Below are positions 3,150-40,829 of a stretch of 64,000 nucleotides of DNA, one piece after another. The stretch is taken from positions 14,808 through 78,807 of the forward strand of contig MGKQ01000001.1 of NCBI GenBank assembly GCA_001795735.1, given 5' to 3'. The DNA comes from Candidatus Yanofskybacteria bacterium RIFCSPLOWO2_02_FULL_41_13. Lineage in GTDB: Bacteria > Patescibacteriota > Minisyncoccia > 2-02-FULL-40-12 > GWA2-44-9. How positions within the stretch are numbered: position 1 is the stretch's first letter; each line of letters opens with the position of its first letter. Under the pieces are notes generated by a model. That model ran no database searches. It was not told the DNA's origin and worked only from the letters and a program-made list of their open reading frames with translations. The translations under genes were made by a program, and so were the position numbers.

Positions 3150-3191
3150 GTATTTGTCCGAGAGTGAAATGATCGGTAACAAATACTTACC
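3145..3191. repeat. 13-bp perfect inverted repeat (GGTAAGTATTTGT / ACAAATACTTACC) hairpin overlapping the stop of the HTH gene
   Basis: Seen in sequence. 21-nt loop containing a CCGA/TCGG mini-stem. No T-run. Confidence 0.5.
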
Positions 3192-7221: not shown

Positions 7222-7362
7222 CTTTCCCTACCTATTTCTTTTTAAGGATCTTTCGTACAAAAAGCATACTATAGTTTTCAATTAAATCAAGCGGTTAGGT
7301 TGACAAGCATGATAAGATTATTTACTCTCCACTAATGCTTGGTACAAACGAGGGGCAGTAAG

Positions 7363-9528: not shown

Positions 9529-10567
9529 GAGGATCATTTCTTACTGCAAAGCGATCAACGAAGCGCTTTATCAGGAGATGGAGAGAGATGAGAGGATATT
9601 CGTTTACGGTTTGGACGTTGCGGATCACAAACGCACATTCGGCTCCGGTGAGGGCTTATTGGAACGTTTTGGGCCCAAGCGATATTTTTCCACCCCTCTT
9701 TCAGAAGATGCCATGATGGGTTTGGGCGGCGGCGGCGCTGTAGCCGGTTTACGCCCCATCAACGTACACATAAGAGTTGACTTTCTTTTGCTGTCCATGA
9801 ATCAGTTAGCAAACATGATTGCCCCCATACGCTACGGATCGGATGGAAAACTTTCTGTTCCATTGGTAATCCGCGCAATTATTGGGCGGGGCTGGGGCCA
9901 AGGATTCCAACATTCAAAAACTCTGCAAAGTGTTTTTGCCCACATTCCCGGATTAAAGGTAGTTATGCCAACTACGCCTTATGACGCTAAGGGATTGCTT
10001 ATATCCGCTATTCGCGACAATAATCCGGTTCTTATTCTGGAACATCGCCTACTTTACTGGCAGAAAGGCCGGGTTCCCGAAGAACCATTTACCGTTCCTC
10101 TCGGCCAAGCCAACGTTCTTAGACCGGGAACCGATATCACTATCGCCGCTACATCGTGGATGAACGTTGAAGCTTATACCGCCGCACGGATAATGGAAAA
10201 GCGCAGTGTAGATGTAGAGATAATTGACATCCGCTCAATCGCTCCGCTTGATGATAAGCTTGTAACTGAATCCGCCATTAAGACAGGTCATTTGATTGTA
10301 GCCGACTACGACTGGATTAATTGCGGCCTCTCAGCTGAAATTACCGCCAGAGTATATGAAAAATGTATGCATCAATTAAAATCACCGATTACAAGAATCG
10401 GTTTTGCGCCAACACCATGCCCAACCACGCGCCCGCTTGAAAATTTGTTCTATCCTGGCGCAGAAACGCTAGTTAGAGTTATCGAACAGAAACTTGGCCT
10501 TGAGAGAGCCGATCTATCTGAAGAAGAATTTTTTAGTTATGAGAATAAATTCCGCGGTCCGTTTTGA
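9518..10567 (+). CDS. ThDP-dependent dehydrogenase E1 component, beta subunit (transketolase-like)
   Basis: E1-beta-like sequence. SD AAGGGGG precedes the ATG. Overlaps the alpha gene. Confidence 0.8.
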   Translation: MENKRIISYCKAINEALYQEMERDERIFVYGLDVADHKRTFGSGEGLLERFGPKRYFSTPLSEDAMMGLGGGGAVAGLRPINVHIRVDFLLLSMNQLANMIAPIRYGSDGKLSVPLVIRAIIGRGWGQGFQHSKTLQSVFAHIPGLKVVMPTTPYDAKGLLISAIRDNNPVLILEHRLLYWQKGRVPEEPFTVPLGQANVLRPGTDITIAATSWMNVEAYTAARIMEKRSVDVEIIDIRSIAPLDDKLVTESAIKTGHLIVADYDWINCGLSAEITARVYEKCMHQLKSPITRIGFAPTPCPTTRPLENLFYPGAETLVRVIEQKLGLERADLSEEEFFSYENKFRGPF

Positions 10568-11786: not shown

Positions 11787-12989
11787 GTGAATTATAAATA
11801 TCCTCTTGCCACAGACACCGTGACCAAAGAAGACCTCCGTGCTTTGGCTGTCTGGCTGTTGAGTGATCCTGCGCCCCGCCTAACCATGGGGCCGTTAGTA
11901 AAAGAATACGAGCAAAGATGGTGCGACTGGCTTGGCAGAAATTTTGCTATCTCTTGCAGTACGGGTTCAGATGCCAATGAGTTAATGTATTACACCCTGC
12001 TCCGCTCAGGCCGGCTAAAGAACAAGAAAATTATCGTTCCAAGTGCCGCTTGGGTTACCAGTATTTCTCCGGCAATACATTACGGTTTTGAGCCGATTAT
12101 GTGCGATGCCGATTATGACACATGGGCTCTTAACAAGAGACATCTCAGAGCCTTACTCGAAGAGCACAATCCTTCTACGGTTTTTTTAGTTCAAGTACTT
12201 GGCATCCCTCACGATATGGATGACCTGATGAAACTAAAAAAGGAATACGGATTCTTCCTTCTTGAAGATACCTGTGCCGCAATCGGTTCCTCATATCATG
12301 GCCAAAAATTGGGAACATTCGGTGACATGTCTAGCATCTCAACCTATTACGGCCACCAGACACCGACCGTTGAGGGCGGAGTAGTATTTACAGATGATAA
12401 GGATCTCAATGATCTGCTTTTGATGTTAAGAAGTCATGGCTGGGTAGCACATGTTGATCCGGAGAAAAGAACCGAAATTTTAAAGAAATACGAAATCGAA
12501 GATATCGGAACCCATTTTCACTTCATTGAGCCCGGCTTTAATTCACGATTTACTGATATGCAGGCATTCCTCGGCCTGCGCCAGCTTGACCGAATAGAGT
12601 GGAACATCGAAAAAAGATCTTCTAACCACCGGCTCTACAAACAGATACTTGGTCACAGCGGTTTGTTTATGACCCAGGTTTATGACAAGGAGTCAGTTGT
12701 ATGCAGTATCCACTTTTGCGCCCTGGCCTTAAATTATGAGGAAAGAAATATAATTATTAAAGAGCTTCAGAACAACGGCATAGAAACCAGGCCGTTTACT
12801 TCGGGTAATCAGGGCCTTCAGCCATATTGGTTCAGAGAATATGGAAAGTTCTCCGCCTCCGTAGCCAATAAGCTTTATCACTGCGGGTTCTTCCTACCCA
12901 ATCACCCCTATCTTAAAACGGAAGACATCGAGTACATCTGTTCGGTAGCGATCAAGACAGCATTGGAATACAGAGAGGAGAATGGATAA
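11787..12989 (+). CDS. DegT/DnrJ/EryC1-family PLP/PMP enzyme with His at the canonical Lys position (sugar 3-dehydratase-like, E1/ColD-type)
   Basis: Family pattern D.CAAIG...SISTYYGHQTPTVEGG with H replacing the Schiff-base K. GTG start with GAGGTG SD. Confidence 0.7.
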   Translation: MNYKYPLATDTVTKEDLRALAVWLLSDPAPRLTMGPLVKEYEQRWCDWLGRNFAISCSTGSDANELMYYTLLRSGRLKNKKIIVPSAAWVTSISPAIHYGFEPIMCDADYDTWALNKRHLRALLEEHNPSTVFLVQVLGIPHDMDDLMKLKKEYGFFLLEDTCAAIGSSYHGQKLGTFGDMSSISTYYGHQTPTVEGGVVFTDDKDLNDLLLMLRSHGWVAHVDPEKRTEILKKYEIEDIGTHFHFIEPGFNSRFTDMQAFLGLRQLDRIEWNIEKRSSNHRLYKQILGHSGLFMTQVYDKESVVCSIHFCALALNYEERNIIIKELQNNGIETRPFTSGNQGLQPYWFREYGKFSASVANKLYHCGFFLPNHPYLKTEDIEYICSVAIKTALEYREENG

Positions 12990-13927
12990 TGCCCAGAGTT
13001 CTTGTCACCGGAGGCGCCGGGTATATCGGTTCGGTTCTGGTACCAATGCTTTTGAATGCCGGCCATGAGGTCATCGTACTTGATAACTTCATGTACAATC
13101 AGACTTCTCTACTTGACTGTTGTCACAACAAAAATCTGCTGATTATCAGAGGCGATTCCAGAGATGAAAAACGGATAGAAGATACTTTTAAAAACTACTG
13201 GCCTATAAGATATGTCATTCCCCTGGCTTGCATCGTCGGAGCTCCTGCTTGCGACAAAGACCCATGGTCTGCCAGAACGACCAACCTGGATGCGGTTAGA
13301 ATGATCGCCGACCGATGGAGACCAAGAATAATATTCCCCAACACTAACAGCGGTTACGGTATCGGCCAAGAAAGAAACTATTGCACTGAAGAGTCTTCGT
13401 TAAATCCAGTTTCTCTCTATGGCAAACTAAAAGTTGAAGCAGAAGAGGTATTATTAAAAAATGGAAATTCTGTGGTTCTCCGCCTGGCAACTGTTTTTGG
13501 AATCAGTCCGCGCATGCGTCTGGATTTGCTAGTTAATGACTTCGTTTACAGAGCCGTAAATGACCGCTATGTAGTACTCTTTGAGGGTAATTTTAAAAGA
13601 AACTACATCCACGTCCGAGATGTTGCAAGAGCATTTATGCATTGCATGGAAAACTTTAAGACGATGGATGGCCAAGTCTACAATGTCGGATTAAGTGATG
13701 CTAACCTTTCAAAATTGGAACTATGCGAGGAGATAAAGAAGCAAGTACCTGGCTTTTATTTTGCCGAAGCTAAAATAGGCGAAGATCCTGATAAACGCAA
13801 CTATATCGTCAGCAACGAAAAGATTGAGAAAACCGGATTTAAACCGGAGGTTTCTCTGCAAGAAGGAATTGCTGAGTTAATCAGAGGTTATCCGGTTATA
13901 AAAAATAACCATTTCTCAAATATTTAA
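12989..13927 (+). CDS. NAD-dependent epimerase/dehydratase (extended SDR)
   Basis: VLVTGGAGYIGS. Confidence 0.8.
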   Translation: MPRVLVTGGAGYIGSVLVPMLLNAGHEVIVLDNFMYNQTSLLDCCHNKNLLIIRGDSRDEKRIEDTFKNYWPIRYVIPLACIVGAPACDKDPWSARTTNLDAVRMIADRWRPRIIFPNTNSGYGIGQERNYCTEESSLNPVSLYGKLKVEAEEVLLKNGNSVVLRLATVFGISPRMRLDLLVNDFVYRAVNDRYVVLFEGNFKRNYIHVRDVARAFMHCMENFKTMDGQVYNVGLSDANLSKLELCEEIKKQVPGFYFAEAKIGEDPDKRNYIVSNEKIEKTGFKPEVSLQEGIAELIRGYPVIKNNHFSNI

Positions 13928-13991: not shown

Positions 13992-16067
13992 TTATACCGG
14001 TTCATTGGGCCGTATTGTATAAAGATAAGCACCGTTACGAAAACACCACCAGACGACTTTTCTCAGCCATTCTTCCAAAGAATCCCAGGATTCAGTTGTG
14101 CGATCAATGCAATACTCTGCTGGGCCTTCTTCGAGTATGGCCGGTTGTCCGGTAAAAATGTTTCTATAGAATTCCCAGACCCGGTAATTTAGTTTAATGG
14201 TGAGGTCGTGATCCTGGAACGGAAGCTTAAGAAGCGCCCGGTTAAGCCGAATTGCATCGTCAAGTATTATATCATTGACCGGGGCTGATCGGACGTTGCG
14301 CATAAGCCGAAGTGCCCGTTGAGCCTCTTCGTAAAAATCGGATAGCCGACCATTAACATATAATTTTATCATGGCGTATGCATCGGCCGGCCACCAAATA
14401 TCGAGCCATTCCCCGGAGTGACTGTACTCCTCTTGGCCCTGAGTTATTTTTGTCGCTTCGCTTAATAAGAATTGTCTTATGCTTGCTAGTACCGGGAATT
14501 CTTCTTCGGGAAGAAAGATTTTATGATTGCTGACGTCACGGTAATTTCCTTCTGAGAAAAGTTCTATCAGCTCCCGATAGCTTATGCCGCCAATCTGGTT
14601 CATGACTATTAAAGGAATCTGAAACATTTTATCAAAATGCAGAAAGGCAGACATCCAAGTGAACACCCTGGTACGAATCCAATCTTCCTTAGGCATAGTT
14701 TTTGTGGCAACTACCGCTTTCTGCCATTCATCTATGCCATCGGGAGTTTCTTCTTTCTTACCGTGAACGGTAAGTATTTTAATCGATACTGTTTTCATTC
14801 CGTACTCTTCCATATATTCAGGATTAGCCGCTTCGGCATTAGGCAAGATAGTAAATATATTAAAATGAATACGATTATGCTGGCCACCGGCAATAGTATT
14901 TGAGATGCCGTCAGCAAATGAGTCATATGTCTCATTGGGCATAGCCATAATCATATCAGTCACTATCATCGTACCCTTAGCGGCCATCTCATTCTGACGT
15001 GCCTGATAGGCTTCTACCTTCATATTGTCGCGGCGAATTGCCCTGAGAGTTTCCGCATTAGTTGACTGCAGTGACATAAGACCATCGGTCTTAAGTCCCG
15101 AGCGATCTAATATCGCTAACGCTTCAAATGAGTGGTCTTTCGGATTTTTTGCGTTTTGGGTTGCTATTGCCTTTGGAAATCCGTACTGCTCACGGATTTT
15201 CGCAAATTGTTCGGCAATCTTGACGTCCCGTTCTAAGATTCCAAAATTAGCATCCCCGATAAACGTATAGCCTATCTGATGCCGGCCGATCCATTCAATA
15301 TCACCACAGACCTGCTCCAAGGGAAACTTGGCCAGCTTATCTTCCGTCGCACCGCCCCAGTCACAAAATGTACATGCATATGGACAGCCTCGATTAGTCT
15401 CGAGAAGCACAATCCACTTTTGTTCCGGAAAAGATTTAATCAAATCGTCGAAAATCCCGGATTGGTAAGGTGACGGTACTACACCGAGATCAACAATACG
15501 AGGACGTCTAGGATTATGCACAAAGGTTCCGTCTTTACGTAAGTAACTTATCGATGGAATGTCTTCCCTCTCATAATTGCCGTCGAGCAACCGCTCAAGG
15601 ATATCTAGAAATACTGCTTCGCCCTCACCGTGACAGGCAATATCAATGAAGGGATAGTCCCGATGAAATGTTTCAGTAAAACTCTTGCGTAAACGTGTCA
15701 GCTGAATAAGACCGGCTGATTTTTTTTCACGGCCGAATCTTTTTAGTCCGTCTGGCACATGAGGACCACCGAAAACAATAATAATTTCCGGTTTTTGGCG
15801 CTTAAGCTCTCGGGCAATAGCACATGATAATTCAAAATTCCAAACGTAAACACTGAAAGCAACGATTTGAGCATCTATTAATTTAGCTACTGCAGATTCA
15901 ACGGTAAGCCGCTTATAGACCATCTGCAGAAATTCAAAACTGTTAGAATCGCGGGCGTACTTCTGGGCATAGGCCTTCAAATAACCGATAGATGGGGGCA
16001 GATAGCACTGACCATCCGAAAATTCGTTGCCGATCTGAGCCAAACCTATGGTTAGCTTTTTCATCAT
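13992..16067 (-). CDS. B12-binding-domain radical SAM protein (large, 691 aa; paralog of 18968..21133)
   Basis: N-terminal cobalamin-binding-like region, CPYACTFCDWG CxxxCxxC motif, conserved C-terminal roughly 250-aa extension shared with the paralog. Confidence 0.8.
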   Translation of the reverse strand: MMKKLTIGLAQIGNEFSDGQCYLPPSIGYLKAYAQKYARDSNSFEFLQMVYKRLTVESAVAKLIDAQIVAFSVYVWNFELSCAIARELKRQKPEIIIVFGGPHVPDGLKRFGREKKSAGLIQLTRLRKSFTETFHRDYPFIDIACHGEGEAVFLDILERLLDGNYEREDIPSISYLRKDGTFVHNPRRPRIVDLGVVPSPYQSGIFDDLIKSFPEQKWIVLLETNRGCPYACTFCDWGGATEDKLAKFPLEQVCGDIEWIGRHQIGYTFIGDANFGILERDVKIAEQFAKIREQYGFPKAIATQNAKNPKDHSFEALAILDRSGLKTDGLMSLQSTNAETLRAIRRDNMKVEAYQARQNEMAAKGTMIVTDMIMAMPNETYDSFADGISNTIAGGQHNRIHFNIFTILPNAEAANPEYMEEYGMKTVSIKILTVHGKKEETPDGIDEWQKAVVATKTMPKEDWIRTRVFTWMSAFLHFDKMFQIPLIVMNQIGGISYRELIELFSEGNYRDVSNHKIFLPEEEFPVLASIRQFLLSEATKITQGQEEYSHSGEWLDIWWPADAYAMIKLYVNGRLSDFYEEAQRALRLMRNVRSAPVNDIILDDAIRLNRALLKLPFQDHDLTIKLNYRVWEFYRNIFTGQPAILEEGPAEYCIDRTTESWDSLEEWLRKVVWWCFRNGAYLYTIRPNEPV

Positions 16068-16136
16068 TTACCCTTTAATATTGTAAATGTACATTTGCTG
16101 AATGATACTTAATGGCCGCTTCGTCGTCAACAGTAA

Positions 16137-16166
16137 AAAAGACCCTGTAGGGGGGTCTTTTTGTTG
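16137..16166 (-). terminator. rho-independent terminator (minus strand) after the RmlC-like gene
   Basis: AAAAGACCC / GGGTCTTTT stem with a T-run. Confidence 0.55.
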
Positions 16167-16700
16167 CTAGCTGTCTCTTCTTGAGAGGATAGGATTTCCG
16201 GTTGGCCAGGTGATATTGAATCGTGGATCGTTCCATTTAACGGTGAACTGATTCTTACCATCGGTATAATATTCCGATTGGTTATAGTGGAACACTGCCC
16301 AGTCGCTCAATATTAAGTGGCCGTTGGCATGCATGGGGGGAATAAGTATCTGAAGACAATTACGGGGAGTCAGGGTAAAGGCTTCCCATTTTCCAAAGGA
16401 CGGAGAAGTCTCATTGTAATTCATGACTACCAGGTATAGCTCTCCGTAGAGGCAGGAAATGAGCTTCCAGGTTTTAGGATCTCCATGCAAACCACGAAGA
16501 ACGTTTTTATGTGAAAGGGAGTAATCTTGTTCAACGAATTCAATTTTAATTCCGGCATCGAAGTATTCCTGTTTTTTATATACCTCGCCACAAACTCCAC
16601 GATAGTCTTCAAAAAAATAACGCTCTATCCGTAAAACTTCGGGTAAAGTTGTCTGCGAAACCTTAATCATATAGATACTATAGCATATAATTAAAACCAA
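16167..16700 (-). CDS. dTDP-4-dehydrorhamnose-3,5-epimerase-like cupin (RmlC family sugar 3,5-epimerase)
   Basis: FEDYRGV...VLRGLHGDP...KLISCLYGELYLVV matches the RmlC pattern. True start may be the internal MIKV (16670). Confidence 0.7.
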   Translation of the reverse strand: MVLIICYSIYMIKVSQTTLPEVLRIERYFFEDYRGVCGEVYKKQEYFDAGIKIEFVEQDYSLSHKNVLRGLHGDPKTWKLISCLYGELYLVVMNYNETSPSFGKWEAFTLTPRNCLQILIPPMHANGHLILSDWAVFHYNQSEYYTDGKNQFTVKWNDPRFNITWPTGNPILSRRDS

Positions 16701-16784
16701 ACTGTCAGTTGACTAAACATCATTCTCGGTATACTATTGATCATTGTTCATTCAAATTCAAACAAAGGTCTGGAGGCGGGTCTA

Positions 16785-17738
16785 ATGACAAAGAAAAGAG
16801 TTTTGGTTTGCGGAGCTAGCGGATTTATCGGAAGAAATATATTTGAACGGCTATCGGAACGCAAAGATATTGAACTTATAGGAACTTATCACAATAATCG
16901 TTTTAGCTCAGACCCGCGATTAGTTAAGGTTGACCTGACTGATAAACATGAAGTTAATGAATTACTAAAAGGCGTTGATATCTTAATTCAAGCCGCAGCA
17001 GTCACTTCCGGTTCAAAGCAAATAAAGGAGAGGCCCTTCATTCATATCACCGACAATGGAATTATGAATCTTCTTATGTATCAGGCATCCTTTGATCAGC
17101 GTATCGGAATGGTAATTTTCTTCAGTTGTTCAGTTATGTATCCCGGCGGCGACAAGCCGGCTAAAGAATCGGATCTTAATCTTAATGACGGCATGCATCC
17201 TACATATTTCGGGGCCGGTTGGACAAAAATCTATTTAGAAAAAATGTGTGACTTTTACTCGCGCCTGGGCCGGACTAAATTTCTTGTCATCCGACACTCA
17301 AACATATACGGTCCGTACGATAAATACGACCTTGAAAAATCTCATATGTTCGGCGCCAATGTTACTAAAGTTATGACGGCTAAAGATGGCGATGAAATTA
17401 CGGTCTGGGGAACGGGCCAGGAAAAACGAGATCTGGTATATGTGTCCGACCTGGTTGATTTTGTCGAGCTGGCTATGGCAAAGCAAGATCGGGATAGCTT
17501 TGACTTAGTTAATGTCGGCTGTGGTGAGGCCTTAAGCGTAAATGATATAATCTCAAAAATAATTACTGCTTCGGGTAAGAATCTATCTTTAGCACATAAC
17601 GTAACCGGACCGACCATTCCAGTTAGCATTACGCTTGATGCAACGAGAGCAAAAGATATATATGGCTGGCAGCCCAAAGTTTCACTTGATACCGGTATCG
17701 CCAGAACTATTGATTGGTATCGTAAAAATATTCTATAA
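16785..17738 (+). CDS. NAD-dependent epimerase/dehydratase (extended SDR; GDP-fucose-synthase/4-reductase-like)
   Basis: VLVCGASGFIGRN. Start set at the ATG preceded by GGAGG SD (the ORF-track start is 48 nt upstream). Confidence 0.75.
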   Translation: MTKKRVLVCGASGFIGRNIFERLSERKDIELIGTYHNNRFSSDPRLVKVDLTDKHEVNELLKGVDILIQAAAVTSGSKQIKERPFIHITDNGIMNLLMYQASFDQRIGMVIFFSCSVMYPGGDKPAKESDLNLNDGMHPTYFGAGWTKIYLEKMCDFYSRLGRTKFLVIRHSNIYGPYDKYDLEKSHMFGANVTKVMTAKDGDEITVWGTGQEKRDLVYVSDLVDFVELAMAKQDRDSFDLVNVGCGEALSVNDIISKIITASGKNLSLAHNVTGPTIPVSITLDATRAKDIYGWQPKVSLDTGIARTIDWYRKNIL

Positions 17739-17765
17739 AACCTCGAATTCTACGAGGTTTTTTAT
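17737..17765 (+). terminator. rho-independent terminator
   Basis: AACCTCG / CGAGGTT stem followed by TTTTT. Confidence 0.6.
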
Positions 17766-17771
17766 TGATTG

Positions 17772-17851
17772 ATCCCGTTAGAGGTCCGACTTGCCTAGAA
17801 GGCATGGTCAGCAGATGCACCACCAAGGGCGCATCTTACCTCTAACGGGAT
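17772..17851. mobile_element. divergent member of the CCCGTTAGA terminal-inverted-repeat element family (MITE-like or structured small RNA)
   Basis: 14-bp perfect IRs ATCCCGTTAGAGGT / ACCTCTAACGGGAT enclosing 52 nt with internal hairpins. TIR sequence is related to the elements at 51486 and 61162. Confidence 0.5.
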
Positions 17852-17914
17852 TGACACTCGCTATTAATTATGTAAAAATAACAATCAGCTATTTACCAAG
17901 ATAGGAGAAGATCG

Positions 17915-18883
17915 GTGAAGTATAGACCACTCGGAGCAAGCGGGATCATGGTATCTGAAATTGGATTTGGCGGCTGGGGCATCGGTGGAGTAACTCCAGG
18001 TCCAACCTCATATGGTCCGACTGACGACAATGAGTCTCGGAAAGCCCTGGAGGCAGCCTTTAATAACGGAATTAGTTACTATGATACTGCCGGTGTTTAC
18101 GGCAAAAGCGAAGAGTTGATCGGAAGAACTTTTAAGCACCGGCGGGGCCAAGTAGTTATCGGCACTAAGATAGGATTTCTGGAACACCATACTCCGCAAG
18201 ATTTTTCCAGAAAGAATATCTTCAGCACACTTGAAAAAAGTTTACGTAATCTGGGAACAGACTACGTTGATCTTTACCAGCTTCACAACCCAGATATTCA
18301 AAACCTGCGTATGGACGAAATTGTGAGCGCCCTGAAGGAATTAAAAATCAGAGGATTAGTCAGGGCCTTGGGTGTTTCCGTTAAACATCCTAACCATGGT
18401 TTATTAGCTCTTAAATACGGCGAATTTTGCTCTATACAAGTTAATCTCAGCATGATTGATCAGAGGGCAATTGATAACAGTCTCTTAGATCAAGCTAGGG
18501 AACAGGGCATTGGAATTATTGCACGCACACCTTTAAACTTTGGCTTTCTTACCGATAACGGAACAACAATGGATCTAAACTTCGGTCCTGAGGATCATAG
18601 GTCAGTTTGGCCAATGGAACAAAGGGTGGCCTGGCAAAAAGCGGCTCGTTTATTATCTGAAGTTCATCCCGAATATCCCCTAGCCACATTAGCGCTACGC
18701 TACTGTCTAAGCGTTACTGGAGTAAGTACTGTCATCCCCGGCCTACTTACGGTAAGTGACGTTTTGGAGAACACTACTACTTCAAACTTACCGCTATTGA
18801 GTCCCGAAACAATGGCTAAGATCAGAGAGATATACAACGACAATGACCAATTCTTTGTCCGACAGCCAAGTCCTCCTAAATAA
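17915..18883 (+). CDS. aldo/keto reductase
   Basis: AKR N-terminus GASGIMVSEIGFGGWGIGG. GTG start with AGGAGAAG SD. Confidence 0.8.
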   Translation: MKYRPLGASGIMVSEIGFGGWGIGGVTPGPTSYGPTDDNESRKALEAAFNNGISYYDTAGVYGKSEELIGRTFKHRRGQVVIGTKIGFLEHHTPQDFSRKNIFSTLEKSLRNLGTDYVDLYQLHNPDIQNLRMDEIVSALKELKIRGLVRALGVSVKHPNHGLLALKYGEFCSIQVNLSMIDQRAIDNSLLDQAREQGIGIIARTPLNFGFLTDNGTTMDLNFGPEDHRSVWPMEQRVAWQKAARLLSEVHPEYPLATLALRYCLSVTGVSTVIPGLLTVSDVLENTTTSNLPLLSPETMAKIREIYNDNDQFFVRQPSPPK

Positions 18884-18967
18884 GAGGGCTTTTTTATTCA
18901 ATGATTGCCAAAAGACCAACTTTAATGTATAAATACCGCTATGAACCTTAACAACTAGGGAGTTCTT

Positions 18968-21133
18968 GTGAGCTCAAAAATGATCCCGCTCAAGATAGCC
19001 GGAGAAAGTCCTCCTTACCCTACAGCGACGAAACCTCCATCAAAAATAATAAAAGTAGGGCAGATTCAGCTAAACACAAGTTTCTCTAATCAATACTATT
19101 TCCCACTCGCCGCCGGGATGAATCAGGCATATGCAAAAAAACATTTACGCTACTCGGATCATTACGAATTTAATGATACGATTTTCAGATTCCCTAAAAG
19201 CAGGAGGGAGATAGATGAAACGGCTGAAAAACTGAGTGAGAACCACCTGCTTCTGGTTGGAAACTACACATGGGGAGAACAGCACTCTTTGGCGTTAGCT
19301 CGTAGATACAAGCAGTACAATCCAAATGGAATTGTCGTCTTTGGAGGACCCCAGGTACCAGATAGCAAAAAACAATTCCGCAGAAACAGAACCATTGAGC
19401 TGACCGAGGAAGAGCAAAAGAGAAAAAGAGTAAGTTTTACGCCAAGCTATCATCACCTTAATCCGTTTATTGATATTTGCGTTCACGGCGAAGGTGAAAG
19501 ATCATTGCGATATGCTCTTGAACAAATGGCAATTGATGGTCTTCAAGACAAGACCGCAATTCCTTCTATCAGCTATATGGATGCGGATGGTAATTTCCGT
19601 TACAATGCCAAGCTTGAAAGAATGAATGATCGGGAGCTAGCCGAAACAGCATCACCATTTACAACTGGCATATTTGATACGCTCATACCGCTCTATCCTG
19701 AACTTGTATTTATAGCAATGTATGAAACGGATCGAGGCTGTCCATTTACTTGTACATATTGCGATTGGGGCGGCGCAACGGAAGACAAGATAAGCCGAAT
19801 GCCCATGGAAATGATCTATCAGGATATTATGTGGATGGGAGAGAGACGGATTCCATACGTATTTTTGTGCAATGCGAATTTCGGAATTCTCGAGCGCGAC
19901 ATACAAATTGCCGAATTTTTTGCCGAAGCGAAAGCTAAGTACGGATTTCCGGAAGCAATCAGCACTCAAAATTCAAAAAACCCCAAAAAGCACACGATTG
20001 AGGCTCTTAAAATTTTGCAGCGGGCCGGCATAAATAAAGCCACTGTGATGTCACAACAATCATTAAACCCTCCCACCCTGAAAGCAGTGAGACGCGATAA
20101 TATGCACCTTGATGAATACTACAAGATCCAGAAAGACTTGGCAGCCGAAGGAATTTATACAATGACTGATCTTATTCCCGGCATGCCGGAAGAGACGTAC
20201 GACACTTTATTTGACGGTATCGTGACGTTGATCACTAATGGCCAGCATAACCGCATCCAATTCAACATTCTTTCCAGACTAATTAATACCGAAATGGCTA
20301 ATGAAGAATATCAGGATTACTACGGATTCCAAACAGTAAAAACTCCGATCATTAATGCCCATGGAAGCAGAGGTGATACGGATACGGGAATCGAGGAACT
20401 GCAAGAGTTTGTTGTCGCAACCAATACTATGCCGCCCGAAGATTGGGTTAAAACATATGTCCTGTGTTGGACTATAAATCTAGTCTACTTCAGTAAACTT
20501 CTCCAGATTCCCATAATAGTTCTTAACAGAGTTTACGGTTTGGACTATCGCAAAATTTTTGAACTATTTCTTGCTGGACAATTCTCGCAATACGGAGATT
20601 TTCCGGTACTATCTGAAATTAATAAATTCCTGACTGAAGTTGGTTCCGGTATACAGAAAGGCGAACGGGGAGAATTTACTTACTCTAAAGAATATCTGAA
20701 TATTTACTGGATGTCAGATGAATATGTATTGATCAAAATGTGCAAAGAAGGAAAAATAGAACAATTTTATGAAGAAGCACATAGGCTGATATCACATCTT
20801 ATTGAACCTCACCAGGACAAGGGACCGCTTGATGAAGCCATTGAGTTAAATAAATCTTTACTGAAACTTCCATTCCAAACGAGCGACCTGGATCTAACTC
20901 TCACATACAGCATCTGGGAGATGTACAAGGCCGTACTTCGAGGCAGAGATGAAGATTTAAAACAGGGACATTATCGATATACGATCGACCGAACCACAAA
21001 AGACGAACGGGGTAGCAATTGGTGGGAATCGTGGGAAGATTGGTACAGACAGATGGTCTGGTACTGTAACCGCCGAGGTGCCTATCTTTATGGTAATGTA
21101 AATCCACATCAAGAGATCGCCGGTCATCATTAA
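18968..21133 (+). CDS. B12-binding-domain radical SAM protein (721 aa; paralog of 13992..16067)
   Basis: CPFTCTYCDWGGATEDK. Co-linear similarity with the other large radical SAM protein, including the C-terminal YxIDRTT...W..W...V.W.C.RRGAYLY region. Confidence 0.8.
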   Translation: MSSKMIPLKIAGESPPYPTATKPPSKIIKVGQIQLNTSFSNQYYFPLAAGMNQAYAKKHLRYSDHYEFNDTIFRFPKSRREIDETAEKLSENHLLLVGNYTWGEQHSLALARRYKQYNPNGIVVFGGPQVPDSKKQFRRNRTIELTEEEQKRKRVSFTPSYHHLNPFIDICVHGEGERSLRYALEQMAIDGLQDKTAIPSISYMDADGNFRYNAKLERMNDRELAETASPFTTGIFDTLIPLYPELVFIAMYETDRGCPFTCTYCDWGGATEDKISRMPMEMIYQDIMWMGERRIPYVFLCNANFGILERDIQIAEFFAEAKAKYGFPEAISTQNSKNPKKHTIEALKILQRAGINKATVMSQQSLNPPTLKAVRRDNMHLDEYYKIQKDLAAEGIYTMTDLIPGMPEETYDTLFDGIVTLITNGQHNRIQFNILSRLINTEMANEEYQDYYGFQTVKTPIINAHGSRGDTDTGIEELQEFVVATNTMPPEDWVKTYVLCWTINLVYFSKLLQIPIIVLNRVYGLDYRKIFELFLAGQFSQYGDFPVLSEINKFLTEVGSGIQKGERGEFTYSKEYLNIYWMSDEYVLIKMCKEGKIEQFYEEAHRLISHLIEPHQDKGPLDEAIELNKSLLKLPFQTSDLDLTLTYSIWEMYKAVLRGRDEDLKQGHYRYTIDRTTKDERGSNWWESWEDWYRQMVWYCNRRGAYLYGNVNPHQEIAGHH

Positions 21134-21139
21134 AAACAT

Positions 21140-21166
21140 AAATCCCGCAATTAGCGGGATTTTTAA
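21140..21166. terminator. bidirectional rho-independent terminator between convergent radical SAM genes
   Basis: AAATCCCGC / GCGGGATTT stem flanked by A- and T-runs. Confidence 0.65.
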
Positions 21167-21179
21167 TTTTATAAGGTTC

Positions 21180-22478
21180 TCAGTAAACCATTCCGTGGTC
21201 TCTAAGATATTGCTGAACCTGACGAATATTGTTTGCAATCTCTTCGCGGCTAAGTGACGGGCCCCAAGGAGTTTCCTTCTCATACTCAAACGGCAGACCG
21301 ACCTCTTCATCATCACCGAAACGAAACATTAGATGGGCATGCTTGGAGAGGTCTTTTTCAATACTCTTAATGCCTAAGGACTTTGCACTCTCATGAAAAA
21401 CAGAGCCGGGCACTACGTCTAGTCCCGAAAGAGCTACATAATCCGGCTTGACTTCTTCAAGGAACCGGATAGTCTTCTCAACTACTTGGTTTGTCTCACC
21501 CGGAAGACCGAAGATAATACAAACCTTTACTTTAATATCGTGCTTCTTTAACAATTCAATAAACCGGCGGTTTGCATCAACACTTTTCGACGGCTTATTT
21601 GATAACTCAAGCACTTTATCAGATTCAACGCTTTCAACTCCTATAGCTAACTCCAGACATCCGCTTTGCCGAGCGAGTTTTATAACTTCTTCCGATCCCA
21701 TTGGTATCGTCTGTCCTCTCCAGACGATGTTTTCGGAAGCAATAGCTTCAAACATGGCAACAGCTTCCTTGCGGTTAACGGGAATACACACCTCATCGCG
21801 CAGGTTAATCCCTTGCACTCCATAGCGCTCTTTCAGATATTTAATCTCGGCCGTAATCTGGTCGGGTCGCCTAAGCTCAAACCTATTCGGATTGTTATAT
21901 ACGCAAAAGCTACAGTGAAAAACACAACCGCGCGAGAAATAAACATTCGTTCCGGGAATCACACCATATTGAGAGAAATGCTTATCATTGACGATCTTGG
22001 AATCAGGGAGAAAATCCCGTTGCGGAAAAGGATATGAAGCAAAATGGAATATCTGATTACTTCTATACACAGGCTGTAAGCGATTAGCACGATAGTCTGC
22101 AAGCGCCTGTAATATCAACTCCTCGCCGCTGCCAACGATTGATGCATCAAAGACGCCGATGCATTCTTCCGTCAAGTGATCGACATGATTGCCACCGGCG
22201 ATATGTACACCGTTGATATGTTTTTGCTTTGTATCTCTGACGATGCCGTATATTTCAGGCGCATCAGCACTCTTCATAATCCAGTAGAAGTAAACGTCTC
22301 TTTCTGGCAGATCAACCCGTCGGCCCTTCGGCCAATCACGCAAATCTATGACATCAACGTTCAGATCCTTATCCCGCTCACGTAAGAAAGTCGCATAATA
22401 AAGTTCCCAAAGCGGCTGTAACTTTGCAGGGTCTTTCCAGTAATGCCAAGATGGCACAACAACAGCAACATTCAGCAT
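21180..22478 (-). CDS. B12-binding-domain radical SAM protein (432 aa)
   Basis: SRGCVFHCSFCVYN CxxxCxxC motif, preceded by a B12-binding-like N-terminal region. Confidence 0.75.
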   Translation of the reverse strand: MLNVAVVVPSWHYWKDPAKLQPLWELYYATFLRERDKDLNVDVIDLRDWPKGRRVDLPERDVYFYWIMKSADAPEIYGIVRDTKQKHINGVHIAGGNHVDHLTEECIGVFDASIVGSGEELILQALADYRANRLQPVYRSNQIFHFASYPFPQRDFLPDSKIVNDKHFSQYGVIPGTNVYFSRGCVFHCSFCVYNNPNRFELRRPDQITAEIKYLKERYGVQGINLRDEVCIPVNRKEAVAMFEAIASENIVWRGQTIPMGSEEVIKLARQSGCLELAIGVESVESDKVLELSNKPSKSVDANRRFIELLKKHDIKVKVCIIFGLPGETNQVVEKTIRFLEEVKPDYVALSGLDVVPGSVFHESAKSLGIKSIEKDLSKHAHLMFRFGDDEEVGLPFEYEKETPWGPSLSREEIANNIRQVQQYLRDHGMVY

Positions 22479-22615: not shown

Positions 22616-23569
22616 GTGTTCAGAAATAGCAAAGTTTTAGTTACCGGTGGAACCGGCTTTATTGGCACAAACCTCATAAAAAGACTTCTCGAAACCGAGG
22701 CTATTGTCAGAGCCACTTTCCACCAACAAAAACCTACCGAATTTCTTGATCGAGTTAATTATGTAAAAGCTGAGCTCACGAAAGAAGAGGATTGTCGAAG
22801 GGTTGTCCAAGGATCTGATTACGTTTTTATGTGTTCAGCTTATGCTTTAGGCGCTGGAAAATCAGAAGAGGAAAAGGTTCGACATACAACCGCTGATATT
22901 GAAATGACTGCTCTTATGCTTGAAGCCGCCCATAGAGCAAGAGTTAAAAAATTTCTTTGGATAAGCAGTTGCACTATATACCCCCTGTCTGACGCTCCCC
23001 TGAAAGAAGAGCAGGGCCATGCCAACCCGCTTTTTGAAAAATATTTTATTGTGGGATCGACAAAAAGACGCGGAGAAAAACTCTGCCAGGAATATGCCGA
23101 AAAAACTACAAATCCAATGCCTGTTGTTATTGTCAGGCCAACCAGCGCTTACGGGCCTCATGAAAATTTAGCAACTTCTCATGTTATACCCGCTCTTATT
23201 CGAAAGGTTATCGAAAGACATGATCCGGTAGAGGTGTGGGGCGACGGTACAGCCATTAAAGACCTTATTTTTATAGATGATCTTACTAGAGGCATGCTTT
23301 TAGCGATGGAGAAGCTGGATAAATTTATGCCGATAAATCTCGGTTCCGGAGAACAGACAAGTATTAAAGAAATCATAGAAACTGTAATTCAAATCGACGG
23401 TTACAATAATGCCCGAATCGTTTTTGACACTTCTAAACCGACAATGCTCCCAAAAATGCTGGTTGATGTTACCAGAGCTAAAGAAGTTTTGGGCTTCAAA
23501 ACAACAACAAGCCTTGAAGATGGGTTGAGAATGACAATTGAGTGGTACAGACAGAATAAAAACAAGTAA
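22616..23569 (+). CDS. NAD-dependent epimerase/dehydratase (extended SDR; GDP-fucose-synthase-like 3,5-epimerase/4-reductase)
   Basis: VLVTGGTGFIGTNL. GTG start with GGGGGG SD. Confidence 0.75.
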   Translation: MFRNSKVLVTGGTGFIGTNLIKRLLETEAIVRATFHQQKPTEFLDRVNYVKAELTKEEDCRRVVQGSDYVFMCSAYALGAGKSEEEKVRHTTADIEMTALMLEAAHRARVKKFLWISSCTIYPLSDAPLKEEQGHANPLFEKYFIVGSTKRRGEKLCQEYAEKTTNPMPVVIVRPTSAYGPHENLATSHVIPALIRKVIERHDPVEVWGDGTAIKDLIFIDDLTRGMLLAMEKLDKFMPINLGSGEQTSIKEIIETVIQIDGYNNARIVFDTSKPTMLPKMLVDVTRAKEVLGFKTTTSLEDGLRMTIEWYRQNKNK

Positions 23570-23645: not shown

Positions 23646-23669
23646 TGCATAGTGGGTGTTTCTGCAATT

Positions 23670-24752
23670 ATGAATAACCATCCCTCGACAAATACAGGTA
23701 TTATAATTCCTACGATGGATAGGGCCGATTTTTTAATTCGACAACTTAGTTACTATGCATCGGTCAGATGCCCACACACTATTTATATTGGCGATTCAAG
23801 CTCCAAAGAAGAATCGGAAAAAATACAGAACGAAATCAAACGGCTCGGAAACATTATCAATGTAAGGTATCTTTATTTACCATCCCATAGTATTTGGCAG
23901 GCTCACTATCGTCTGACTACTGAGGTAAAGGAAAAATATACTTGCCTTAGTGGCGATGATGATTATCAGATCCCCAATTCAGTAACTAAATGTGCCGAAT
24001 TTCTGGAAGCTAATCAAGACTATACAACGGCGAGTGGTCATGCGGTGAGCTTCAGATTAAAACGGCATGGGGTATATGGGGAGCTTTTACGACTAGCTGA
24101 TTACCCAAGAGGACAGATAGAAAACGATACTGGGGCTGAAAGAATTATAAACTTTTTTAATAATTATTTTGTTACCTTTTTTTCAGTAAACAGGACTGAG
24201 CAGACTAGAGAATATTGGCGAAGCTCAGAAAAAATACCGGACAGATCATTTGGATCTGAAATCCTACCAAGTTCCTTGCCCTTAATCCATGGTAAATCTA
24301 AGATATTAGATTGCCTTAGCTTTGTGAGACAGATCCACAACCAACATCATACTCTAGCAAATACTTTTGATTGGATTACAAGCCCAGAGTGGCATCCATC
24401 CTACTTGATTGTTAAAGAAACACTTGCGAAAAATTTAGTTGCAAAAGATAATATTCCCGCTAAGAATGCTACTGAAGTTACGAGGCAATCTCTTTGGGCT
24501 CTTCTGAAGATACATCTTGCGAAAGATTATGAAATGAACTACCCCGCCAAAGAGATAAAGAGAATTGACAAACAAGGAGTAAAGTTCATAAAATCAAGGA
24601 TTGTCAGAATATTTCCGATCTCTAAGCCAATATACCGAATGCTGATAAAACCTCTTATAACCGGCAAGAAGGAGATGAATTTCGAAGTGCTTCAGCCTAA
24701 ATCAAAATACTATCAGGACTTTAAACCGGTGATGGATTCATTTACCGGATAG
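23670..24752 (+). CDS. GT-A fold glycosyltransferase-like protein (GT2-like, DxD present)
   Basis: IIIPTMDRADFL...IYIGDSSS...CLSGDDDY pattern of family-2-like transferases. Start set at the first ATG downstream of the promoter motif. Confidence 0.5.
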   Translation: MNNHPSTNTGIIIPTMDRADFLIRQLSYYASVRCPHTIYIGDSSSKEESEKIQNEIKRLGNIINVRYLYLPSHSIWQAHYRLTTEVKEKYTCLSGDDDYQIPNSVTKCAEFLEANQDYTTASGHAVSFRLKRHGVYGELLRLADYPRGQIENDTGAERIINFFNNYFVTFFSVNRTEQTREYWRSSEKIPDRSFGSEILPSSLPLIHGKSKILDCLSFVRQIHNQHHTLANTFDWITSPEWHPSYLIVKETLAKNLVAKDNIPAKNATEVTRQSLWALLKIHLAKDYEMNYPAKEIKRIDKQGVKFIKSRIVRIFPISKPIYRMLIKPLITGKKEMNFEVLQPKSKYYQDFKPVMDSFTG

Positions 24753-24843: not shown

Positions 24844-25830
24844 ATGCTCGATAATAAGACAATTCTGATAACCGGGGGGACGGGTTCATTCGGCAAAAAT
24901 TTTGCCAAATTTTTACTCAAAAGTAGCGGGCTCAAAAAGCTCATTATTTTCAGCCGAGATGAGTTCAAGCAATACGAGATGCAGAAAGAAATAAGCGATC
25001 CGCGTATACGTTTTTTTATCGGTGATGTTCGGGATTTGCCACGTCTTCAGCGTGCCTTCCATGGTGTTGATATCGTTATCCATGCCGCCGCGCTTAAACA
25101 AGTTCCTACGCTGGAGTACAATCCCTTTGAAGCAGTAAAGACGAATATAATCGGGTCGCAGAATGTAATTGATGCTTCAATTGACCAGAGTGTTTCAAAA
25201 ACACTGCTCATTTCAAGCGACAAGGCTGTTCAGCCAATCAACCTTTATGGGGCGACTAAATTGGCCGCCGAAAAGCTTTTTGTGGCCGCAAACTCTTATA
25301 CATCGCTCACAAAACGTAGTATCTTCAGTGCGGTACGCTATGGTAATGTAATGGGAAGCCGAGGCAGTATCGTTGAGGCGCTTCTTAAAAAACCTGCCGC
25401 AGAAAAGGTATTTATAACCCATCCGGACATGACTCGTTTTTGGCTTACCCTGTCAGAGAGCTTCCACCTTGTTTTATTTGCTATTAAGCATATGGGTGGC
25501 GGAGAAATAATCGTGCCTAAAATTCCCAGCATGAAGATAACCGAACTTTTTGATGCCCTTGCTCCGCGGGCTAAAAAAGTAATCACCGGCATACGACCGG
25601 GAGAAAAAATTCATGAAACGCTTTTAACTGAGCATGAGGCGCGCAATACCATATTAGTAGGGAATCATTTCGTTATTCTTCCTGAATTTACTTCAAAACC
25701 AAAATTTTTCGAACATTACTATACGCTGGGAAGCAAGCTTGATAACCATACTCCCTTCGCCAGTGATAACAACACAGTATGGCTAACCAAAAAAGAACTA
25801 AAATCAAAAATAAAACCGACGCTACTCTAA
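24844..25830 (+). CDS. pseB: UDP-N-acetylglucosamine 4,6-dehydratase (PseB/FlaA1-like short CapD family)
   Basis: KTILITGGTGSFGKNF and overall PseB/FlaA1-type extended SDR of about 330 aa. Confidence 0.75.
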   Translation: MLDNKTILITGGTGSFGKNFAKFLLKSSGLKKLIIFSRDEFKQYEMQKEISDPRIRFFIGDVRDLPRLQRAFHGVDIVIHAAALKQVPTLEYNPFEAVKTNIIGSQNVIDASIDQSVSKTLLISSDKAVQPINLYGATKLAAEKLFVAANSYTSLTKRSIFSAVRYGNVMGSRGSIVEALLKKPAAEKVFITHPDMTRFWLTLSESFHLVLFAIKHMGGGEIIVPKIPSMKITELFDALAPRAKKVITGIRPGEKIHETLLTEHEARNTILVGNHFVILPEFTSKPKFFEHYYTLGSKLDNHTPFASDNNTVWLTKKELKSKIKPTLL

Positions 25831-26939
25831 AACGAAGTCCGATCCCCTATGGTCGACAGAGGATAGGCGCCGATGACATCAGAACAGTTATCAGTGTGCT
25901 CAAATCAGATTGGCTCACTCAGGGCCCTATGGTGAAAAGGTTTGAAGAATCATTAGCTCGTTACTGCGGAGCAAAATTTGCTGTTGCCGTATCCAGCGGT
26001 ACCGCCGCCCTTCATCTGGCGTATTTAGCCGCCGGACTTCAACCCGATGATGAAGTAATAACGACACCGAATACATTCGTTGCCACATCCAATATGCTTT
26101 TAGCCGTAAAAGCTAGGCCAGTTTTTTGCGATATCCGGCTGGATAATTACAACCTTGATGAAACTAAAATAGAATCGCTGATTACCTCCAAAACAAAAGC
26201 TATCGTACCGGTCCACTTCGCCGGACATCCCTGTGAAATGGATAGTATTCTGAGTCTGGCAAAAAAACATAATCTTCTCGTGATTGAAGATGCCTGTCAT
26301 GCATTGGGGGCATCGTATAAAAATACTAAAGTTGGTGGTATCGGAGATATGACTGTTTTTAGCTTTCATCCGGTCAAATCTATTACCACCGGCGAGGGAG
26401 GAGCAATACTAACAAACAATAAAAACTTTTATGAAAAATTATTATTATTAAGGTCTCACGGCATAACAAAGGATAAAAATGGATTCAATGTTATGGCCGA
26501 GCTGGGACATAATTACCGAGTTACGGATATTCAAGCAGCGCTTGGCTTAAGTCAGCTTAAGAAGCTAGATGGATTTATTAAAAAAAGAAGTGAGCTTATG
26601 TCCGGATATTATAGAGAGTTAAAAGATGTGAAGAATATCATACTCCCGAGAATAACTGAAAACATAATTTCCGCCGGTCATATTTTTATTATAAGAGTCA
26701 AAGACCGGGCAAAAAGGCTAAAATTGATGGAATTCCTAAAAAATAATGGCATCGGGGTTAACTTTCACTATCCGGCCGTTTACTCTCATCCTTATTACAG
26801 ACAGAATGGATATGACGGACTAACACTAGACAACGAGGAGATATATAGCAGTTCGTGCGTCACTCTCCCCCTCTACCCGAACTTAAAACTAGAAAGTATA
26901 GAGTATATCTGCGATAAAATAAAAACTTTTTTCAAATGA
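25779..26939 (+). CDS. pseC: DegT-family sugar aminotransferase with canonical Lys (PseC-like UDP-4-amino-4,6-dideoxy-sugar transaminase)
   Basis: IPYGRQ.I...D...WLTQG N-terminus and FSFHPVKSITTGEGG. Exact start uncertain (overlaps the pseB 3' end). Confidence 0.75.
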   Translation: MANQKRTKIKNKTDATLKRSPIPYGRQRIGADDIRTVISVLKSDWLTQGPMVKRFEESLARYCGAKFAVAVSSGTAALHLAYLAAGLQPDDEVITTPNTFVATSNMLLAVKARPVFCDIRLDNYNLDETKIESLITSKTKAIVPVHFAGHPCEMDSILSLAKKHNLLVIEDACHALGASYKNTKVGGIGDMTVFSFHPVKSITTGEGGAILTNNKNFYEKLLLLRSHGITKDKNGFNVMAELGHNYRVTDIQAALGLSQLKKLDGFIKKRSELMSGYYRELKDVKNIILPRITENIISAGHIFIIRVKDRAKRLKLMEFLKNNGIGVNFHYPAVYSHPYYRQNGYDGLTLDNEEIYSSSCVTLPLYPNLKLESIEYICDKIKTFFK

Positions 26940-31915: not shown

Positions 31916-31923
31916 AATATAAT

Positions 31924-35398: not shown

Positions 35399-35450
35399 GA
35401 TGGAATGGTATATTTTAATACGAGTTCTTTAATTTTTCCAAGGAGATAAG

Positions 35451-40818: not shown

Positions 40819-40829
40819 TAAATGCTGGA

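Follow-up and report, generated by a model that had tools for sequence, protein, structure and literature searches.

Two proteins of 691 and 721 residues, here called RS-A and RS-B, are encoded in a large glycan locus of Candidatus Yanofskybacteria bacterium RIFCSPLOWO2_02_FULL_41_13. By their sequences and predicted structure they are members of the TokK/ThnK/CysS branch of the class B radical S-adenosylmethionine (SAM) methylases. We analysed a stretch of 64,000 nucleotides around their genes (contig MGKQ01000001.1, positions 14,808 to 78,807), referred to below as the window. From homology and gene context, we lean slightly towards the view that RS-A and RS-B carry out a cobalamin-dependent, possibly iterative C-methylation of a guanosine diphosphate (GDP)-linked sugar or of its two-carbon branch. 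Likewise, we favour by a narrow margin a recruitment of the clade to the synthesis of nucleotide sugars; the use of cobalamin, the transfer of a methyl group and the carbon that receives it are inferred along with it. The fold, the cofactor logic and the probable chemistry are known; what would be new is the substrate class, together with a conserved gene cassette, which apparently makes sugars with side branches for glycans of the cell surface, and its wide phylogenetic spread.

RS-A and RS-B among the class B radical SAM enzymes

A reading of the window made from the sequence alone (the sequence-only reading) had described RS-A and RS-B as clear paralogs. This was borne out: a BLASTP alignment runs end to end at 43% identity, the cysteine-motif segments of the two large proteins are CPYACTFCDWGGATEDK and CPFTCTYCDWGGATEDK, and both also carry a C-terminal IDRTT...GAYLY motif, in which Arg656 of the IDRT segment and the GAYLY tyrosines are invariant. 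The Pfam Radical_SAM profile matches both above its cutoff. The Pfam B12-binding profile reaches exactly its threshold in RS-A (32.1 bits) and is sub-threshold in RS-B (16.7 bits), and the cobalamin domain is assigned mainly because the full-length fold, N-terminal domain included, matches that of TokK.

A phmmer search of the PDB sequences with RS-A returned TokK (7KDX, E = 8.8e-82) and CysS (9N1B, E = 3.8e-53), and OxsB only at E = 4e-5. We then compared a full-length AlphaFold2 model of RS-A, built from 47 homologs (predicted local distance difference test, pLDDT, 87.3), with solved structures using Foldseek. The template-modelling (TM) score was 0.80-0.85 over ~700 columns for TokK and 0.70-0.76 for CysS; normalised to the query, OxsB (0.47) and TsrM stayed below 0.5. 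In the predicted structure the N-terminal domain superposes on that of TokK, in agreement with the B12-binding fold expected from the sequence. The closest relatives are TokK and CysS, both iterative sp3 C-methylases, and not GenK, Fom3 or OxsB, which the sequence-only reading had named as precedents for action on sugars.

The catalytic residues point the same way. C228, C232 and C235 of the CxxxCxxC motif (RS-A numbering) are invariant in 47 family sequences including RS-B, and so are W76 and W237, which the phmmer alignment pairs with W76 and W215 of TokK. According to the TokK and CysS papers, the Trp beneath the cobalt (TokK W76, CysS Trp75) and the active-site Trp (TokK W215) are specific to TokK, ThnK and CysS. 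It is because of the PDB matches, the fold superposition, the invariant Trp pair and the cluster cysteines that we place RS-A and RS-B in this branch.

Other identities were rejected. The best NCBIfam match of both proteins is the KedN5 model NF033712, whose cutoff is 700 bits; RS-A scores 253.8 and RS-B 206.4, so membership of that curated family was discarded. The same holds for bacteriochlorophyll, hopanoid and lipid methylases, since the BchE, HpnJ, HpnR and ladderane-lipid models gave 15-60 bits against cutoffs of 360-650. No characterised non-sugar family was reached above cutoff in Pfam or NCBIfam.

The C-terminal extension had been taken as unassignable and perhaps novel, and here the outcome is different. 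In a sequence-profile search against the PDB, only the first 63 of the C-terminal 252 residues matched (TokK 419-481, E = 0.0017), the remaining ~185 residues having no match; this divergence beyond the first 63 residues explains why the sequence-only reading could not assign the extension. The novel-domain interpretation, which the profile alone would suggest, was rejected on comparison of structures. Modelled alone (pLDDT 85.4), the 252 residues match the third domain of TokK with E = 2.9e-5 (query-normalised TM score, TMq, 0.56; 223-225 columns; 14% identity) and that of CysS with E = 3e-3, and against the whole PDB every other match had E > 0.1. This domain lines the substrate cavity in TokK and CysS and contacts the pantetheine arm of the substrate (TokK and CysS papers). 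As judged from the model, the extension is the known clade-specific substrate-binding domain in a strongly diverged form, with no new fold, and its strong divergence fits a different substrate.

A further feature of the two proteins is an insertion of ~25 residues in the cobalamin-binding domain (RS-A ~107-133, RS-B ~137-165), which is absent from TokK and from a distant relative, P0128. The model shows a helix there, at lower confidence, and the insertion may mark out the subclade of the sugar cassette.

Spread of the clade and its conserved gene neighbourhood

The clade is large. With a threshold of E <= 1e-5, a word-indexed search found 1944 proteins; hardly any of them has a name, and many are full length, with 45-50% identity. 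An exhaustive phmmer search of proteins clustered at 50% identity found 1114 cluster representatives at E <= 1e-30. At least 596 loci or species genomes were confirmed, the species scan having taken one genome per GTDB species, with hosts in numerous phyla of bacteria and among some archaea. The bacteria comprise Patescibacteria, Planctomycetes, Omnitrophota, Nitrospirae, Acidobacteria, Verrucomicrobia, Gemmatimonadetes, Chloroflexota, Elusimicrobia, Spirochaetes, Actinobacteria and many Alphaproteobacteria (such as Reyranella, Tagaea, Bradyrhizobium iriomotense, Pelagibacteraceae, SAR116 and Azospirillum); archaeal hosts include Methanoperedens and Woesearchaeota. No homolog was found in a phage collection.

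RS-A, which is 100% identical to a recorded protein from a Candidatus Yanofskybacteria metagenome-assembled genome, belongs to a small and divergent subclade, with 65-77% identity to four proteins (P0002-P0005) and no more than 51% to any other. RS-B falls in the mainstream subclade and shares 55-62% identity with many other proteins. A recent local duplication was rejected, since RS-B is 88% identical to its ortholog in the Yanofskybacteria locus L015 and only 43% to RS-A; the sequences indicate that RS-A and RS-B are an old pair from different subclades. A pair of an RS-A-type and an RS-B-type protein recurs in locus L084, and two tandem copies occur in a Saccharibacteria locus.

Several relatives are unusually long. 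P0149 (1283 aa) and P0157 (1271 aa) are single polypeptides that each match B12-binding twice and Radical_SAM twice, and the P0149 sequence comprises two complete TokK-like modules with a cysteine motif in each, a natural tandem fusion that parallels the unfused pair of the window. Six relatives of RS-B of ~800-1090 aa (P0128, P0129, P0135, P0138, P0151 and P0201) contain inteins with LAGLIDADG or HINT domains; that of P0128 interrupts the CxxxCxxC cluster motif itself (RGCPFSC before the CFSSS start of the intein, SFCDWG after its terminal KQ). Among the long relatives examined for fusions to sugar enzymes, the extra length consisted of inteins or tandem radical SAM modules and gave no clue to the substrate.

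To compare gene neighbourhoods, all open reading frames (ORFs) in 80 related loci were translated and compared with the window proteins; unless stated otherwise, the counts given in this text refer to the 42 loci with full 10-kb flanks. The most frequent partner is an aldo-keto reductase (AKR), found in 31 loci (74%). In 40 of the 47 AKR-bearing loci its gene directly follows the radical SAM gene on the same strand, as counted from stop positions because stop-to-stop ORFs overrun the true gene starts. The AKR is the conserved partner of the mainstream radical SAM paralog; in the window it sits 84 bp upstream of RS-B. A short-chain dehydrogenase/reductase (SDR) resembling Fcl occurs in 69% of loci, often flanking the radical SAM gene, a homolog of the HddA-like GHMP kinase in 28 (67%; 44 of all 80 loci, median identity 53%), a nucleoside triphosphate (NTP) transferase in 62%, and a Gmd (GDP-mannose 4,6-dehydratase) ortholog at >=45% identity in 22. 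The E1 alpha and beta subunits of a pyruvate dehydrogenase (PDH)-type enzyme are present in 25 (60%). Their place is taken in some loci (L006, L028, L035, L047, L071 and the Azospirillum locus L086) by a split transketolase, so that any thiamine pyrophosphate (TPP)-dependent system is found in 31 loci, in 26 of them together with the AKR. Less frequent are an RmlC-like cupin (29%), the commonest type of sugar aminotransferase (26%), a classical short-chain dehydrogenase (26%) and a radical SAM protein of the 432-aa type described below (14%); homologs of the SDR at 12989..13927 occur in 14 of all 80 loci with a median identity of 61%.

Pfam-annotated contigs from other metagenomes gave the same picture. 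Several clusters of conserved neighbours were discarded, as they had no Pfam match and were probably shadow ORFs in high-GC genomes. The comparison thus recovers a conserved nucleotide-sugar cassette and supports the view, already taken from the sequence alone, that class B radical SAM enzymes are embedded here among nucleotide-sugar genes.

One of these loci, L086, belongs to a cultured and sequenced strain. It lies on the mobilisable plasmid p2 of Azospirillum sp. TSA2s (NZ_CP039644.1, 280153..310117), where the order in RefSeq is Gmd, an oxidoreductase, the transketolase N and C subunits, a methyltransferase, a GT61 glycosyltransferase, an SDR, a NUDIX protein, the radical SAM protein and the AKR. 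There the radical SAM gene is E6C67_RS04265, the ortholog's protein record WP_136701551.1 and the AKR gene E6C67_RS04260. With so compact a cassette in a host practical for genetics, the hypothesis is testable. The cassette of radical SAM, AKR and E1 genes is also present in three single-cell genomes, L072 (Pelagibacteraceae AG-414-M23), L067 (SAR116) and L063, which implies a cobalamin-dependent enzyme in the surface-glycan synthesis of streamlined marine Alphaproteobacteria.

Proposed chemistry and its alternatives

By analogy with TokK and CysS, one SAM would methylate cob(I)alamin, held base-off above the conserved Trp, and a second would be cleaved at the [4Fe-4S] cluster to give the 5'-deoxyadenosyl radical. 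This radical would take a hydrogen from an unactivated sp3 carbon of the substrate, and the substrate radical would then receive the methyl group from methylcobalamin, possibly repeatedly. Our model suggests that the substrate is a nucleoside diphosphate (NDP)-linked, probably GDP-linked, 4-keto-6-deoxy sugar intermediate of the conserved cassette, supplied by Gmd or by the SDRs. The most plausible target would be the methyl or methylene carbon of an acetyl or glycolyl two-carbon branch installed by E1 alpha/beta or by the split transketolase. Methylation could come before or after reduction of the branch carbonyl by the adjacent AKR, and the diverged C-terminal domain would bind the nucleotide-sugar where that of TokK and CysS binds the pantetheine arm.

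RS-A and RS-B would methylate two different sites or act at two different steps. RS-A is predicted to be co-transcribed with the RmlC-like gene and has an ortholog in a nonulosonic-acid context; its target is probably a second site or another intermediate.

The individual steps of this model have precedents. Carbapenam C6 adjoins the beta-lactam carbonyl. At this carbon TokK forms ethyl and isopropyl groups. CysS extends a methoxy carbon stepwise on a pantetheinylated aminobenzoate (CysS paper). The E1 alpha/beta pairs AviB1/AviB2 and Pau11/Pau12 are the proposed installers of a pyruvate-derived acetyl branch at C-4 of 4-keto sugars (PMC4425429), and the AKR Pau7 reduces the acetyl branch to hydroxyethyl in vitro (PMC4753412). 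We tentatively propose, as a possibility well short of even, that iterative methylation of the TPP-installed branch followed by AKR reduction yields a monosaccharide with a three- or four-carbon C-branch. If so, this would be an unreported class of sugar in the surface-glycan loci of hundreds of species, for which the genome-reduced Patescibacteria would have to scavenge cobalamin.

Sugar methylation as such would have broader consequences. The characterised TokK-type iterative methylases belong to antibiotic pathways only and use pantetheine-linked substrates; most of the nearest relatives of these methylases lie in the nucleotide-sugar cassette. If the proposal is true, cobalamin radical SAM chemistry gains a new substrate class, undiscovered branched or chain-extended monosaccharides are predicted in cell-surface glycans, and glycan synthesis imposes an unexpected cobalamin demand on organisms unable to make the cofactor. 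In line with what had been supposed from the sequence, the literature on O-antigen, capsule, heptose and Patescibacteria contexts yielded no description of the clade in glycan loci, a weak negative given the incomplete coverage.

Several observations weigh against the proposed methylation of a GDP-sugar or its branch. The substrate-anchoring Arg280 of TokK is replaced by Ala in RS-A, the family consensus at this position being Ala or Ser, and the alignment therefore suggests that the substrate is not readable from homology. Both characterised structural relatives, TokK and CysS, act on pantetheine-linked, non-sugar substrates. A TPP system within 10 kb is missing from 11 loci and a recognisable sugar partner from three; among the window proteins, no Gmd ortholog and no PF00483 nucleotidyltransferase was found. 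The RS-A ortholog in locus L085 lies inside a nonulosonic-acid block, next to NeuB and without E1 or AKR, and the target of RS-A may differ from the one proposed here. Finally, we know of no sugar with a branch of more than two carbons from such a route, and, to our knowledge, members of the Patescibacteria do not synthesise cobalamin.

Part of this evidence would be accommodated if the methyl group were added to a sugar already transferred to a glycan or glycoconjugate, or to a ring or terminal carbon (for example C6, giving a chain-extended deoxyheptose), which we regard as unlikely, though the best placed of the alternatives. GenK-type C6' methylation acts on an assembled pseudo-oligosaccharide. 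For paulomycin and avilamycin, attachment of the two-carbon branch has been proposed to follow glycosyl transfer (PMC4425429). The 11 loci without a TPP system within 10 kb nevertheless retain SDRs or the AKR, and the RS-A ortholog of L085 adjoins NeuB. However, the tight coupling of the radical SAM gene is to soluble enzymes of NDP-sugar metabolism, in the order SDR, radical SAM, AKR with overlaps or short spacers, and not to glycosyltransferases, and the joint presence of a TPP system and the AKR in 26 loci matches the formation of a branch and its subsequent reduction.

The pantetheine-linked substrates of both solved relatives, bound partly through the C-terminal domain, raise a second alternative, namely that the clade methylates a pantetheine-, coenzyme A (CoA)- or carrier-bound acyl or aryl group that later decorates an amino sugar, or a nucleotide-linked small alcohol as Fom3 does. 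In the latter case a TPP decarboxylase, a reductase and a nucleotidyl transfer would precede B12 radical SAM methylation. The cassette holds a TPP enzyme, the AKR, a kinase and a nucleotidyltransferase, a set that formally parallels the logic of fosfomycin synthesis, and aminotransferases are frequent in the related loci. We nevertheless consider a non-sugar substrate improbable. No carrier protein, CoA ligase or conserved acyltransferase was among the recurrent neighbours, in a clustering of ORFs of at least 100 aa, which may have passed over small carrier proteins, and the dominant partners, Gmd, the Fcl-like SDRs and the RmlC-like epimerases, act on NDP-hexoses. Moreover, the arginine that anchors the carbapenam in TokK has become Ala or Ser, a contrast limited to Arg280, with the pantetheine contacts outside the comparison.

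That the scaffold serves another sugar chemistry altogether (ring contraction, C-C rearrangement, epimerisation or oxidation; cf. OxsB and BchE) is very doubtful: a neighbouring reductase could indeed reduce a radical-made carbonyl, as AprD3 does for AprD4, and class B includes the non-methylases OxsB, BchE and ThnL (PMC12931638), but the nearest relatives are, by far, genuine iterative methylases, with OxsB well behind, and the Trp under the cobalt and that of the active site, which set TokK, ThnK and CysS apart, are both invariant. Thus, of the unusual sugar radical chemistries originally suggested, C-methylation is the most likely for RS-A and RS-B by analogy, and rearrangement and epimerisation are disfavoured by the kinship with methylases.

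Layout of the locus and comparison with known systems

An ORF check of the window recovered, in place, the six ORFs named in the sequence-only reading, and the two paralogs do bracket a 3,5-epimerase-like cupin, an extended SDR and an AKR. The functional module spans roughly 3568-24752 and is wider towards the left than the interval first delimited (13992-22478).

Features of the module in the window, with the evidence for each assignment (aa, amino acids)
Feature	Position	Strand	Evidence
GHMP kinase, HddA-like/fucokinase-like sugar kinase	3568..4569	+	Pfam GHMP_kinases_N and _C; best NCBIfam match HddA, 150.7 bits, below cutoff
Classical short-chain dehydrogenase	4566..5354	-	Pfam adh_short, adh_short_C2
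Split transketolase (N-terminal subunit 6388..7221, C-terminal subunit 5454..6461)	5454..7221	-	Pfam Transketolase_N in one subunit, Transket_pyr and Transketolase_C in the other
Class I SAM-dependent methyltransferase	7339..8481	+	Pfam Methyltransf_23, _11
PDH-type E1 alpha and E1 beta, TPP-dependent	8569..9528 and 9518..10567	+	Pfam E1_dh; Transket_pyr and Transketolase_C; NCBIfam PDH E1 alpha and beta, both below cutoffs
DegT/PseC-type sugar aminotransferase	11787..12989	+	Pfam DegT_DnrJ_EryC1, 228.6 bits; NCBIfam PseC and RfbH-like, below cutoffs
Extended SDR (NDP-sugar epimerase/dehydratase family)	12989..13927	+	Pfam Epimerase, GDP_Man_Dehyd
RS-A, 691 aa, TokK/CysS-type B12-binding radical SAM protein (predicted), divergent subclade	13992..16067	-	Pfam, PDB phmmer, fold
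RmlC-like 3,5-epimerase cupin, directly upstream of RS-A on the same strand	16167..16700	-	Pfam dTDP_sugar_isom, 142 bits; NCBIfam rmlC, 127 bits, below cutoff of 155.75
Extended SDR, GDP-L-fucose-synthase-like	16737..17738	+	Pfam Epimerase; NCBIfam Fcl, 134 bits, below cutoff
AKR	17915..18883	+	Pfam Aldo_ket_red, 195 bits
RS-B, 721 aa, TokK/CysS-type B12-binding radical SAM protein (predicted), mainstream subclade	18968..21133	+	Pfam Radical_SAM, 46.9 bits
Third radical SAM protein, 432 aa, class-B-like architecture	21180..22478	-	Pfam Radical_SAM only
Extended SDR, GDP-L-fucose-synthase-like	22616..23569	+	Pfam Epimerase, 156 bits; NCBIfam Fcl, 155 bits, below cutoff
TIGR04440-type glycosyltransferase	23652..24752	+	NCBIfam TIGR04440, 165.5 bits, above cutoff of 70

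The window contains five radical SAM proteins, confirming the number first counted in this one glycan locus. Besides the three of the module, they are a protein with class-B-like NCBIfam matches (44136..45710) and a SPASM-type protein (35451..36362; Radical_SAM and SPASM). The three of the module had been called cobalamin-type. The call is supported for RS-A and RS-B, mainly by the fold match to TokK, and is unproven for the 432-aa protein, which gave no Pfam B12-binding match. Its partial NCBIfam matches (PhpK, BchE, HpnJ and AprD4) are all far below the cutoffs, and among solved structures AprD4 (6fd2) comes closest in sequence, at E = 6.1e-11 over residues 136-369. Membership of the AprD4 family was rejected, as NF033070 scored 57.1 bits against a cutoff of 500. 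AprD4 itself dehydrates 1,2-diols of sugars by radical SAM chemistry, does without cobalamin and works with a reductase. On sequence grounds, the 432-aa protein and the divergently adjoining Fcl-like SDR could be a radical deoxygenation pair instead of a third methylase.

To the left of the module, between a glycosyltransferase-like gene and the GHMP kinase gene, lie two small ORFs (2904..3460, +) whose products resemble, by eye, an excisionase-type helix-turn-helix protein (81 aa) and a GIY-YIG nuclease (84 aa); an HTH_17 gene also adjoins the GHMP kinase gene in locus L084. To the right, a block at 24844..36362 (+) resembles a pseudaminic- or legionaminic-acid pathway. A PseB-like dehydratase, a PseC-like aminotransferase, a methyltransferase and a NeuB-cytidylyltransferase fusion (27547..29388) are encoded there, as are a 387-aa protein without Pfam match, a HisH/HisF-like amidotransferase pair, a DUF218 protein, an SDR, an ATP-grasp protein, another NeuB and the SPASM radical SAM protein. 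The block of L085 that contains the RS-A ortholog is its equivalent.

Further glycosyltransferases, methyltransferases and a YerE-like TPP enzyme lie beyond this block. A trio on the minus strand (40135..43977) encodes a CotH-kinase protein with a beta-helix domain (808 aa), a VTC-domain protein and a DUF4956 protein, and a DUF4956 gene also flanks the related locus L085. The gene for the YerE/acetolactate-synthase-like enzyme (54438..56294, +) adjoins those of an SDR (56294..57298) and an aminotransferase (53085..54305). With the split transketolase and E1 alpha/beta, the window thus holds three different TPP-dependent candidate systems for forming branches, unusually many for one glycan locus. 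The Yanofskybacteria lineage is generally known for small genomes.

Among known systems, the carbapenem C6 sequential methylases TokK and ThnK (PDB 7KDX, 7KDY) are closest to RS-A and RS-B. They share with them the Rossmann cobalamin domain, the partial barrel of the radical SAM domain and the clade-specific C-terminal domain, and, in TokK, the CxxxCxxC-DW motif, the cobalt Trp W76 and the active-site Trp (W215 in TokK, W237 in RS-A). Identity between TokK and RS-A is ~26% overall. TokK binds the carbapenam through Arg280 and, in the C-terminal domain, Tyr652 and Asn515 (TokK paper); RS-A lacks the arginine expected of a TokK/ThnK ortholog. The context differs too, TokK being encoded in a beta-lactam cluster and RS-A and RS-B among nucleotide-sugar and glycan genes. 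CysS, the iterative methylase that turns the O-methyl group of cystobactamid into O-alkyl groups (PDB 9N1B-9N1D), belongs to the same clade as RS-A and RS-B.

Methylation of sp3 carbons in sugars has precedents elsewhere in class B. GenK, GenD1, Fms7 and MoeK5 are C-methylases of aminoglycoside or moenomycin sugars, and Fom3 acts on a nucleotide-linked substrate, a cytidine monophosphate (CMP)-linked alcohol. A 2026 review places all five among the sp3-carbon methylases and includes no polysaccharide enzyme (PMC12931638). None of the four sugar-acting enzymes was among the PDB or NCBIfam matches to RS-A and RS-B. Their genes sit in secondary-metabolite clusters, unlike the surface-glycan cassettes with E1 alpha/beta and AKR.

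The cassette itself most resembles the paulomycose and eurekanate pathways, in which PDH-type E1 alpha/beta, an AKR and NDP-sugar SDRs have been shown or proposed to make octoses with an acetyl or hydroxyethyl branch at C-4. In the window, E1 alpha/beta (8569..10567) and the AKR (17915..18883) likewise stand among NDP-sugar enzymes. No B12 radical SAM enzyme is described for those pathways in PMC4425429 or PMC4753412. Since the radical SAM gene is here the most tightly linked neighbour of the AKR, an extra step is implied in comparison with the paulomycose pathway.

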